Part shown: piece after piece, positions 1,331-38,992 of the stretch
Numbering within the stretch: the first letter of the stretch is position 1
How the letters are laid out: every line of letters begins with the position of its first letter
IMG/VR virus record: IMGVR_UViG_2565956762_000001
Coordinates: 1 to 39,559 of that record
From: a virus
Lineage: Duplodnaviria > Heunggongvirae > Uroviricota > Caudoviricetes
Length of the DNA stretch: 39,559 nt
Direction: 5' to 3' (one strand)
Notes under the pieces: model-generated
Seen by the model: only the letters and a program-made list of their open reading frames with translations
Database searches by the model: none
Told to the model about the DNA's origin: nothing
Program-made: the position numbers and the translations under genes

Positions 1331-1345
1331 GCTTTTTTATACTAA
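1331..1345. other. attL core (B-O-P'); P' arm with Int arm-type sites follows to about 1420
   Basis: Core GCTTTTTTATACTAA; downstream P'-arm text (…caggtcactatcagtcaaaataaaatcatt…) matches what I recall of lambda attP P' arm. Confidence 0.9.
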
Positions 1346-36983: not shown

Positions 36984-38102
36984 ATGGTGGTTAACATGAG
37001 TGCCTTTTTCCTTTTTATTGCAGTAATTGGTGTAATTATAGATTTAGCATCTCCGGTGACAGTTTATGGTGTACAACTATTCCTATTTCCATTCGCATGC
37101 CTTTTTTTATACGCAAAAAGTGTAAGTAAAATGACGTATCAGTCATTATTATTTATAATAATGGTGGTATCTATTGTTATAATAAGTTCATTTATCCAGG
37201 TTTATATATCACAGCATAATGAGATATTATTATCACAGACGCTTAAAGTAATAATTTGGGTGGTGTCGTCATACTTGTTATATGTTGGATGTAAGGGAGT
37301 GGATAAAGATACTTTAGAGAGATCAATAAATGCAGCGCTAGTAGTTTTCATACTCTCTTTATTTATTCAAGTAGTATCGAAACTTTTATTTGGTTCTATT
37401 GTTGACTACTCTATGCTAATTGGTGGTGAACCATCAAGAAATATGATGACTGGAGTTGGGTTTAGGCCAACAGGGCTAACTGCAGAACCAAGTGTATATT
37501 GCGGAATAACAGCGTGGTTAATTACGTTACGATATGCAATTAATAAAAAGATTGATTATTTGTTTTTACTGTCATGCGTTTCAATGACGTTTACATTGTC
37601 ATTTGTTGGAATATTTCTTTGCTTTCTCATGCTATGTGTTGGTATGATGAGAATTAAGATGATTATCCCAGTGATAGCAATATTTGTGATTGGGTATCTT
37701 TCTGTTTTAAATATTGTAAATGACAGGATTGTTTTATTTCTATCTGGGGCTGATGGTAGCAATAATATAAAGATAGAGACCATTCTTGATTTTATTGGAA
37801 ATCAAAATTTATATATTTTTGGTTATGGTTTGATTGGTAAGTCAGAATCTGCGCCATCATTTTATGAGTCGTTATATGATATGACTATATTTGGAAACTT
37901 TATTACAATATTTGGTCTTCCATTTGGAGTATTATGCATAGTATTATATTGTGTTTTTATAATTAAAATTAAAATAACAAAAAGGGCAAAGCTAATGATG
38001 TTGCTATCATCTTTAAAAATTAGCCTGCCGTTTTTTGCTGTGTTTTATATGGCTATTGCTATGATATGTGCAATTTCAAATAAGAACAAAGCGTTAACGT
38101 AA
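36984..38102 (+). CDS. Polytopic inner-membrane protein, candidate O-antigen polymerase/ligase-like (Wzy/WaaL-like) conversion protein
   Basis: 372-aa ORF, very hydrophobic with around 10 predicted TM segments; visibly AT-rich DNA and atypical codon usage; sits between tailspike and attR. Confidence 0.65.
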   Translation: MVVNMSAFFLFIAVIGVIIDLASPVTVYGVQLFLFPFACLFLYAKSVSKMTYQSLLFIIMVVSIVIISSFIQVYISQHNEILLSQTLKVIIWVVSSYLLYVGCKGVDKDTLERSINAALVVFILSLFIQVVSKLLFGSIVDYSMLIGGEPSRNMMTGVGFRPTGLTAEPSVYCGITAWLITLRYAINKKIDYLFLLSCVSMTFTLSFVGIFLCFLMLCVGMMRIKMIIPVIAIFVIGYLSVLNIVNDRIVLFLSGADGSNNIKIETILDFIGNQNLYIFGYGLIGKSESAPSFYESLYDMTIFGNFITIFGLPFGVLCIVLYCVFIIKIKITKRAKLMMLLSSLKISLPFFAVFYMAIAMICAISNKNKALT

Positions 38103-38402
38103 CAACTTGCACATAATAACATCTCTTTTTTTAGTTTCTGGTGATTGTATTGTTATACTATAATCACCAGAATAAAACTCAGTTAAAGTGAATTTTTCTT
38201 TATCAATAGATATATAATCAAGAGAACGAGCCTCGTTAAAAAATTCTTTTTCAAGGCTAAATTCTACATCATCTAGATGCACTTTGGACGCATTTGATGT
38301 GTTAACTTTAACAAGATGAGAACCACATATTATTTCATTTATCTTTGCGATTGATGAATTACTAACCATAAAGGTAAGTATAAAAAACAAGTATTTAAAC
38401 AT
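38094..38402 (-). CDS. Small exported protein (102 aa) with N-terminal signal peptide
   Basis: MFKYLFFILTFMVSNSSIA… signal-peptide-like N-terminus; AT-rich; convergent with and overlapping the 3' end of the membrane-protein gene. Confidence 0.5.
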   Translation of the reverse strand: MFKYLFFILTFMVSNSSIAKINEIICGSHLVKVNTSNASKVHLDDVEFSLEKEFFNEARSLDYISIDKEKFTLTEFYSGDYSITIQSPETKKRDVIMCKLLR

Positions 38403-38788
38403 ATATCACCATCTTTGAAAAATATTCTACAAATAGTAGCATGAACATCATGCTAATTAAAGAAAGATTGCAAAACTATTTTCCATTTGTCAAGCACTTA
38501 GGTGATAAATGTATGGGGTTGTGATGTTTATATTTTAGTAAGTTCGTGATCATATAATTATTTACATGTAATGATATGTACCACATCAGGTGGTAGTATT
38601 TGTATCCACTTGAGGCAAAACTGAGAAACGCAAAGCTTTGTACTGGATTACAAGGCTTTATGTCATTCGATAGTTAAGGTGGGTCACTCTACCTTCTCAT
38701 CAATCCAGTCCGCCCACCACTGCATCATTTCTCTGCGCTTATCGAGATACTGAGCATGGTTGTAAATTCAGCTAACCCAGTGTGTTGA

Positions 38789-38831
38789 CAAAAAATTAGC
38801 GCAAGAAGACAAAAAAATCACCTTGCGCTAA
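38789..38831 (-). terminator. sib/tI-like retroregulation hairpin in the attP P arm (minus strand)
   Basis: 10-bp perfect stem ttagcgcaag-(16 nt)-cttgcgctaa followed on the minus strand by a T run; lies about 150–190 nt from the core on the side that is downstream of int in the circular phage. Confidence 0.45.
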
Positions 38832-38977
38832 TGCTCTGTTACAGGTCACTAATACCATCTAAGTGGTTGATTCATAGTGACTGGATATGTTGTGTTTTGT
38901 AGCATTATGCAGTCTATTTTTTAGACTAAATATATTATAACGCATTGATATTAATGGTTTTTAGTGTTTCACGTTCA

Positions 38978-38992
38978 GCTTTTTTATACTAA
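38978..38992. other. attR core (P-O-B'); P arm occupies roughly 38740..38977
   Basis: Core GCTTTTTTATACTAA followed by host CTTGAGCG; upstream text (…ctgttacaggtcactaataccatctaagt…) resembles the lambda attP P arm. Confidence 0.9.

Follow-up and report, generated by a model that had tools for sequence, protein, structure and literature searches.

We propose that two AT-rich genes lying directly after the tailspike gene of a P22-like Escherichia coli prophage make up a polymerase-swap seroconversion module that is carried together with a tailspike for the unconverted O antigen, and we give this reading a probability of roughly 0.6. The prophage, complete and 37.6 kb long, occupies most of IMG/VR virus record IMGVR_UViG_2565956762_000001 (positions 1 to 39,559; the whole stretch of 39,559 nucleotides is called the window below), and the two genes, referred to here as the cassette, encode a polytopic membrane protein and a small exported protein, the partner. 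That the membrane protein is a Wzy-type polymerase is well supported, and conversion of the O166 antigen by the cassette appears likely; that the partner inhibits the polymerase already resident in the host is plausible, and we put it forward tentatively.

The cassette

36984-38102, + strand: ORF (open reading frame) of the membrane protein, longest frame 372 aa
36996-38102, + strand: Wzy-type polymerase gene, likely true extent, ATG at 36996, 368 aa
38094-38402, - strand: gene of the small exported protein, 102 aa

A first-pass annotation, made from the letters of the window, had singled out an AT-rich gene pair after the tailspike, and both ORFs are present where it had placed them; they are convergent, overlap by 9 bp (38094-38102) and have a GC content of 30.3% versus 46.6% in the remaining prophage, in which the lowest value elsewhere is 40.7% (1419-bp windows). 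The membrane protein of 372 aa that it described exists as a frame, but translation probably starts at ATG 36996 and yields 368 aa, since a GGTGG Shine-Dalgarno-like motif precedes that codon at 36987-36991 and RefSeq and all homologues begin there. The 102-aa protein does carry the signal peptide ascribed to it, with a signal peptidase I (SPase-I)-type site and no lipobox. The two genes are the last before a genuine attR, as had been claimed, but they are not flush with it, 576 bp intervening. The view that gtrA/gtrB-like genes are missing and that the membrane protein is no family-3 acyltransferase was sound: the stretch from tailspike to attR contains just two ORFs, neither matching GtrA or GT2, and there is no PF01757 match down to E = 1. 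The cassette stands between tailspike and att/int, the slot that had been pointed out as the usual place of O-antigen modification genes.

No terminator separates the genes at their tail-to-tail overlap (38094-38102), so that each transcript would be antisense to the other. An antisense ORF also runs within the polymerase gene, measuring 75 aa in the window (37556-37783, - strand) and 129-136 aa in homologues (L020 8423-8812, L004 8411-8815 and L025 2945-3355, all - strand; L numbers designate the loci compared); it is probably no gene but a side effect of an AT-rich coding strand that specifies a hydrophobic protein.

Assignment of the membrane protein

A word-indexed search of 5.8 billion proteins found 13 relatives of the membrane protein and no more, and a profile made from the close homologues recovered 413 proteins among 1.84 billion cluster representatives. 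Across this family 13 of 77 diverse full-length members match the Pfam model Wzy_C (PF04932; best E value 2.3e-10), and the matches cover residues ~200-350, the region equivalent to that of the membrane protein. The latter is predicted from AlphaFold2 (AF2) helices, hydropathy and the positive-inside rule to span the membrane with 12 transmembrane (TM) helices, N-in/C-in, and to expose two large periplasmic loops (137-168 and 247-301). Almost all family-conserved residues fall in these loops, with D141, G148, R152, R161, G164, E168, P169 and G280 being invariant or at least 90% conserved across the 77 members; two conserved periplasmic loops on a polytopic protein are the classical layout of Wzy. 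The predicted fold is nearest to those of WaaL, FtsW and RodA, with WaaL as the top structural match, and the gene is under purifying selection (dN/dS 0.10-0.18 versus homologues, both cassette genes having been compared at 32-58% identity).

The gene context of more distant homologues (31-37% identical) bears directly on function, because they are the sole non-Wzx polytopic protein in three Wzx-dependent loci:

L008: cpxA-secB (Proteeae-type) O-antigen cluster, homologue in the wzy slot
L027: Providencia rustigianii O-antigen cluster, homologue in the wzy slot
L029: Acinetobacter rongchengensis capsule-type locus, in the order wzx, GT2, GT4, homologue, GT4, GT4, initiating transferase

It is these homologues, and not the prophage gene itself, that are the only polymerase candidates next to wzx and glycosyltransferases. 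From the Wzy_C matches of the relatives, the WaaL/FtsW/RodA-like fold, the 12 TM helices with two loops, the homologues in wzy slots and the S. bongori homologue described below, we conclude that the protein is very probably a Wzy-type polymerase. The first-pass annotation, which had likened it to Wzy/WaaL-type proteins by size and topology, is borne out in fold, helix count and loops, a GtrC or an acyltransferase-3 being disfavoured, with gene context saying polymerase; the profile comparison it had proposed came out divided, relatives matching Wzy_C and the protein itself no model.

It is formally conceivable, if very unlikely, that the membrane protein is no polymerase and that it transfers some other glycan or a side group, either as a ligase of the WaaL type or as a different enzyme sharing this fold. 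WaaL is the structure that matches it best, and Pfam describes Wzy_C as 'O-antigen ligase'. Against this, homologues hold the wzy position together with wzx and glycosyltransferases at four loci that have no other polymerase candidate, and their placement is not the one typical of WaaL, in that they occur in repeat-unit loci and not in the waa core locus; moreover, the cassette has no gtrA/gtrB partners.

Every source name returned for the E. coli cassette genes was 'hypothetical protein', and a PDB sequence search with the polymerase-family profile found nothing. The membrane protein shows no sequence relation to the resident O166 Wzy, also when the family profile is used.

Occurrence in O166 hosts and linkage to the tailspike

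34888-36936, + strand: tailspike, P22-type (Pfam Head_binding, 1e-66)
~aa 1-113 of the tailspike: adaptor, N-terminal P22 head-binding
~35248-36936, + strand: receptor-binding/depolymerase part of the tailspike, which travels with the cassette

The cassette was found in 5 of 5,426 complete E. coli genomes (4 intact, 1 decayed), and the O166 rfb cluster in 18 of them. All four genomes with an intact cassette, namely JNE21-009 (O166:H15), E7476, MLI104K1 and OZ197100, belong to these 18 (hypergeometric probability 8.5e-11, the four carriers being phylogenetically non-independent samples). The O166 cluster holds a wzy of its own: JNE21-009 has a resident 'O166 family O-antigen polymerase' beside the prophage gene, and in E7476, MLI104K1 and OZ197100 the wzx-wzy region of O166 is 99.5-99.6% identical with wzy annotated. 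Since 14 of the 18 O166 genomes are without the cassette, it is an accessory, second polymerase, and since the lysogens keep an unrelated resident wzy, the 'second polymerase' logic of phages D3 and ε15 applies. More than 10 assemblies carry the cassette with unbroken ORFs, at 98.8-100% identity.

In OZ197100 (L002, NZ_OZ197100.1, 4503-7412) the prophage has decayed to an IS3 element and a truncated tailspike with polymerase and partner intact, which looks like an early stage of domestication. A truncated polymerase in this genome was considered and rejected, the 368-aa frame being open and the RefSeq annotation (267 aa) merely starting late.

The decayed copy lies at argW in MLI104K2 (L003, NZ_CP116925.1, 2500-8100), where tailspike and cassette survive in pieces of 83-98% identity with no intact genes. 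MLI104K2 does not count among the genomes with the O166 cluster; MLI104K1, a sister isolate of common source, does, and its module is intact.

DNA of the receptor-binding part of the tailspike occurs in exactly 5 of the 5,426 genomes, the very ones with the cassette. Furthermore, in three lineages (the window, L020 and L025) the polymerase/partner pair comes immediately after a tailspike or fibre whose receptor-binding part is the same throughout but is joined to a different virion adaptor each time: P22 head-binding, Tail_spike_N (this phage has genes for baseplate and sheath-initiator domains close by) or a third type. Taken together, shared synteny and co-distribution identify the unit of inheritance as tailspike receptor domain, polymerase and partner. 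This unit has also moved between phages: the block 32695-38767, comprising an ejection protein, tailspike, polymerase and partner, shares 99.8% identity with argW-integrated prophages such as that of JNE21-009, the similarity ending 84 bp into the intS gene of the latter, and because this remnant of an argW-type intS is fused to a lambda-type att arm in the window, we conclude that the module was transplanted between P22-like phages with different integration systems.

Breakpoints at 36332 (in the tailspike) and 37419 (in the polymerase gene) recur in L002, L019, L025 and L026, and the mosaic segment between them, which spans the final ~200 aa of the tailspike and the N-terminal ~140 aa of the polymerase, is exchanged as one. 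The receptor-binding part also has 64-69% identity with one tailspike out of the several carried by the Kuttervirus phages 38, SS3 and SS9 (Salmonella) and PhaxI (Escherichia), and these virulent phages may target O166/O66-type antigens as well.

An improbable alternative is that the polymerase serves another glycan (enterobacterial common antigen, colanic acid or group 4 capsule), or that its linkage is that of the resident enzyme, for which it acts as a back-up keeping the receptor long. The resident wzy is indeed intact in lysogens, and the substrate and product assigned to the phage enzyme are putative. Nevertheless, the limitation of cassette and tailspike to O166-cluster genomes ties the enzyme to the O166 unit, the S. 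bongori homologue is the lone polymerase candidate for an O166-like unit, and a redundant polymerase copy would leave the conserved partner gene unexplained.

The Salmonella bongori O:66 counterpart

A further homologue comes from Salmonella bongori (CCC29560.1/QXY84726.1); it is 57% identical over its full length, has the same conserved loops and carries the UniRef name 'O-antigen polymerase'. The S. bongori rfb cluster contains all O166 genes bar wzy, in the same order and at 60-70% protein identity, and in the place of wzy there is an 873-bp gap of 26% GC with only decayed fragments of an O166-type wzy. Cluster and island homologue co-occur in the same genomes (CP035676 and NCTC 12419), and by this comparison of gene content no gene other than the 57%-identical homologue is a candidate polymerase for the O166-like unit of S. 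bongori, where it presumably acts as sole polymerase and not as a competitor.

The homologue lies in a chromosomal island (L004-L007, 5700-13300) along with an acyltransferase-3 gene, IS3-family elements and a 159-aa integrase fragment; the gene that adjoins it matches the acyltransferase-3 family, unlike anything in the cassette. The partner gene is reduced there to a 3' remnant, with a stop codon at the otherwise invariant QSP and an IS element in place of its 5' part, and the polymerase homologue is intact in at least 24 S. bongori contigs without a functional partner gene. Because the integrase fragment and the partner-gene remnant flank the polymerase homologue, this gene derives from the same kind of cassette. 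In one S. bongori assembly the island is found on two contigs with different flanks, and an OspG-kinase-like gene adjoins it in L005.

The two settings are therefore alike in that the enzyme would act, by inference, on the O unit of an O166-orthologous rfb cluster; they differ in that the S. bongori gene occupies a chromosomal island flanked by IS elements, where there is no tailspike, the partner gene and the resident wzy are dead and an acyltransferase-3 gene is the neighbour. NCTC 12419 has been predicted to be O:66 (PMC6712391), and Liu et al. (2010; pmid 20185508), in their title, describe the antigens O66 and O166 as 'closely related'; the O66 repeat has been quoted as -Gal-α1,6-Gal-α1,4-[Glc-β1,3]GalNAc-α1,3-GalNAc-β1,3- (PMC5016159). 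The prophage gene can accordingly be described as a homologue of the candidate O66 polymerase, located in strains whose rfb genes predict the O166 unit.

The partner protein

The small protein has a hydrophobic N-terminus and a putative SPase-I-type cleavage site (SIA|K; ANA|G in a homologue), which would leave a mature protein of ~82 aa, acidic and, by prediction, rich in β-structure. Two cysteines, C26 and C98, are invariant in the alignment, as is the motif FTLTE..SG.Y...QSP...R....C, and the protein is probably soluble, disulfide-bonded and periplasmic. No relation was found in Pfam, NCBIfam, PDB (searched also by profile), PHROG or PADLOC; weak hits to DUF6488, Csx19 and Y_Y_Y were absent from the diverged homologues and were rejected as chance.

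A word-based search with the small protein returned near-identical copies only, and its diverged versions (32-35% identical) came to light on inspection of the neighbourhoods of diverged polymerases:

L020: polymerase 58% identical, partner 35% identical by BLASTP (E 9e-18)
L025: polymerase 58% identical, partner 35% identical in the multiple alignment

In all three lineages (the window, L020 and L025) the partner gene is convergent with the polymerase gene and overlaps its 3' end. It is under purifying selection that is laxer than on the polymerase (dN/dS 0.28-0.46). In the E. coli carriers, which have a resident wzy, the partner is intact and 97-100% identical; in S. bongori, where the resident wzy is dead, it is a pseudogene.

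Its synteny with the polymerase and its decay in S. bongori lead us to suggest, tentatively, that the partner inhibits the resident Wzy. The series of states from E. coli lysogen through the OZ197100 remnant to S. bongori, in which the acquired wzy alone is intact, is what would be expected if the partner did nothing else than silence the resident Wzy. Any other phage-only function would, however, produce this series as well, so that the inhibitor role is a tentative one.

A competing explanation, which we consider possible if somewhat improbable, accepts a converting polymerase and gives the partner another role: an accessory subunit or specificity factor of the phage polymerase, a modulator of chain length (Wzz), a blocker in the periplasm of incoming phage DNA or of the tailspike, or an unrelated moron. 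The protein belongs to no known family, and known inhibitors are of another type (the Iap of D3 is a short Wzz-mimicking peptide, cited in PMC13228068); loss of the partner from a non-phage island in S. bongori suits any benefit confined to the phage, and its faster evolution than that of the polymerase (0.28-0.46 vs 0.10-0.18) is as in an arms race. Strict synteny and overlapping stops in three diverged lineages nevertheless speak against an unrelated passenger, and were the partner needed by the phage polymerase, S. bongori would have kept it, whereas the polymerase is intact there without it. Finally, the partner has been kept beside the polymerase in the decayed prophage of an O166 strain that has a resident wzy.

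Proposed mechanism and its weighing

The polymerase-swap reading can be set out as follows. The host rfb enzymes would build and flip the O166 repeat unit linked to undecaprenyl pyrophosphate (Und-PP), and in a lysogen the phage Wzy, placed in the inner membrane, would join these units by a linkage unlike that made by the resident Wzy; this linkage would most likely be of the O66 type (predicted to be GalNAc-β1,3-Gal), as in the related Salmonella antigen with its homologous polymerase candidate. O66 and O166 reportedly differ in inter-unit linkage and in O-acetylation, and a wzy and a prophage acetyltransferase are likewise reported to have been predicted outside the cluster, with which the S. 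bongori island agrees. The periplasmic partner would most likely block the resident Wzy, or its coupling to Wzz, so that a pure phage-type polymer results. The tailspike of the phage would then fail to bind or cleave this changed polymer, giving superinfection exclusion and a change of serotype. We infer the change of linkage, the inhibition by the partner, the expression of the cassette in lysogens and the altered adsorption.

Carried further, the partner might be a soluble protein of a new class that inhibits or redirects Wzy from the periplasm, and the module a portable 'recognise, then rewrite' unit that also creates serogroups; this extension we regard as speculative. A serogroup would be born as the module became fixed, the silenced resident wzy decayed and then the inhibitor decayed in turn, which may be what separates S. 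bongori O:66 from E. coli O166.

Several results pull the other way. Direct Pfam, NCBIfam and PHROG searches with the membrane protein returned no match, PADLOC gave nothing significant, no member of the profile family matches in NCBIfam either, and three relatives checked singly scored 17.6-23.1 bits with Wzy_C, under Pfam's cut-off of 31.7 bits. The AF2 model of the membrane protein reaches a pLDDT of 65, a moderate value, and its predicted fold would not by itself tell a polymerase from a ligase, an ambiguity that is resolved through the gene context of the homologues. For the small protein AF2, run without an alignment, gave a pLDDT of 43 and no usable structure; the partner is unlike any known inhibitor, and the loss of its gene in S. 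bongori fits any phage-only function equally well. The association with O166 comes from non-independent carriers, as noted above. Lastly, promoter-like sites around the cassette were not above chance for either gene in a promoter/terminator scan (11 found vs 13.6 expected), and expression in the lysogen is for that reason putative.

The promoter result, together with the 30% GC, would also suit a cassette that is AT-rich cargo under xenogeneic silencing and without present function, which we hold to be extremely unlikely. Such cargo would not be expected to keep ORFs intact at 98.8-100% identity in more than 10 assemblies with both genes under purifying selection, nor would the pair be expected to outlast the decay of the remaining prophage; in addition, low GC is usual for O-unit processing genes (PMC7685785).

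Prophage context and attachment sites

1331-1345: attL core (lambda att core), exact repeat of the attR core
1419-2489, - strand: lambda-type integrase
38403-38683: AT-rich spacer upstream of the small gene, presumed site of its promoter
38684-38767, - strand: remnant (84 bp) of the 3' end of an argW-type integrase gene (intS)
38768-38977: lambda-type att arm, fused to the intS remnant
38978-38992, + strand: attR core (lambda att core), partner of the attL core

The lambda att core GCTTTTTTATACTAA is present in exactly two copies in the window (1331-1345 and 38978-38992; chance expectation 0), and the host flanks are a pectinesterase-like gene (ybhC-like) and a gene of the PEBP family (ybhB-like), which places the prophage, judging from these matches, at the lambda attachment site of E. 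coli. Between the integrase and the cassette end of the prophage lie P22-type terminase, portal, coat and injectosome genes. The 576 bp from the small gene to attR consist of 281 bp of AT-rich spacer, the 84-bp integrase remnant and the lambda-type att arm. A GGTGA Shine-Dalgarno motif is located 5 nt ahead of the ATG of the small gene (38402), terminator-like hairpins lie upstream of this gene at 38437-38455 (- strand) and 38579-38595 (+ strand), and Rfam gave no match in the spacer. The segment 34888-39559 of the window is 100% identical to assembly GCA_000564835.2.

At 34724-34887, between a gp16-like ejection gene and the tailspike, the window has no immI-type region (arc/mnt/antirepressor); such a region is present in several other carriers of the module (L014, L017 and L018, 9600-11900).

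Implications

If the proposal is true, the cassette provides a concrete polymerase-swap phage of E. coli, found in diarrhoeagenic O166 strains, and in-silico O-typing that considers rfb alone would miscall the antigen displayed by lysogens, which bears on serology, phage therapy and glycoconjugate vaccines. It would also name a specific gene as the 'missing' polymerase of Salmonella O:66 and trace that gene to a phage, and the comparison of O166 with O:66 suggests a stepwise route between serogroups. We found no publication on this cassette or on polymerase-swap conversion by E. coli phages, within a searchable literature that was incomplete; a 2019 review of E. coli O antigens merely hypothesised an inhibitor together with a second wzy, for O118/O151 (PMC7685785).

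Comparison with known conversion systems

The first-pass annotation had suggested that the pair might be analogous but unrelated to the conversion genes of phages D3 and ε15, and this suggestion agrees with what we find. The cassette DNA and proteins have no relative among 50,697 phage records, in which tblastn with both proteins gave no match (the presence of D3 and ε15 in that collection was not separately checked), a scan of IMG/VR likewise revealed no relative of the cassette proteins, and the lysogens keep an unrelated resident wzy.

D3 is a temperate phage that brings a second Wzy making a different inter-unit linkage and a factor that shuts off the resident Wzy. The Pseudomonas phage D3 locus (iap, wzyβ and oac) is thus alike in logic to the cassette (Iap is cited in PMC13228068 and PMC7685785). 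It is unlike it in that Iap is a very short Wzz-mimicking peptide, whereas the partner is exported, probably soluble, 82 aa long and endowed with two Cys residues, and in that D3 has the oac acetyltransferase, whereas the prophage cassette is without an acetyltransferase and its genes are convergent.

The podovirus ε15 has a tailspike that targets the unconverted O antigen and is excluded by the re-linked polymer of the lysogen, conversion being brought about by a β-polymerase and by inhibitors of the α-polymerase and of O-acetylation. These inhibitors are small hydrophobic proteins, and the D3 Iap and the ε15 factors are tiny membrane peptides and not soluble periplasmic proteins, which corrects the first-pass annotation on the small periplasmic inhibitor of these phages; the partner would be another sort of molecule. 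Salmonella phage ε15 is again alike in logic (its iap is mentioned in PMC8787464). It is unlike our prophage in that it is not P22-like and has no detectable homology to the cassette.

The gtr and oac systems add glucose or acetyl side groups to the O antigen. In gtrABC (P22, SfV and others; CPS-53 yfdGHI) and oac (Sf6) the likeness lies in the slot between tailspike and int/att, the low GC content and lysogenic conversion (PMC7685785, PMC8787464). The difference is that the cassette has no GtrA, GtrB or acyltransferase-3 and that its chemistry would be polymerization. Kapi1, a P22-like coliphage at argW that modifies O antigen through unidentified genes, was considered and found not to be homologous to the cassette.

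The prophage-borne Wzy enzymes of Acinetobacter baumannii (Wzy1Ph/Wzy2Ph) resemble the proposed module in that a depolymerase is paired with an extra Wzy, the linkage is changed and the resident product is lost (PMC13228068). They differ in that the target is a capsule, that Wzy1Ph is of the EpsG family and that the inhibitor is unidentified, an open question according to the authors (PMC13228068). If the partner acts as we tentatively suggest, it is a candidate for just such an inhibitor of the resident Wzy, which those authors call unknown (PMC13228068).

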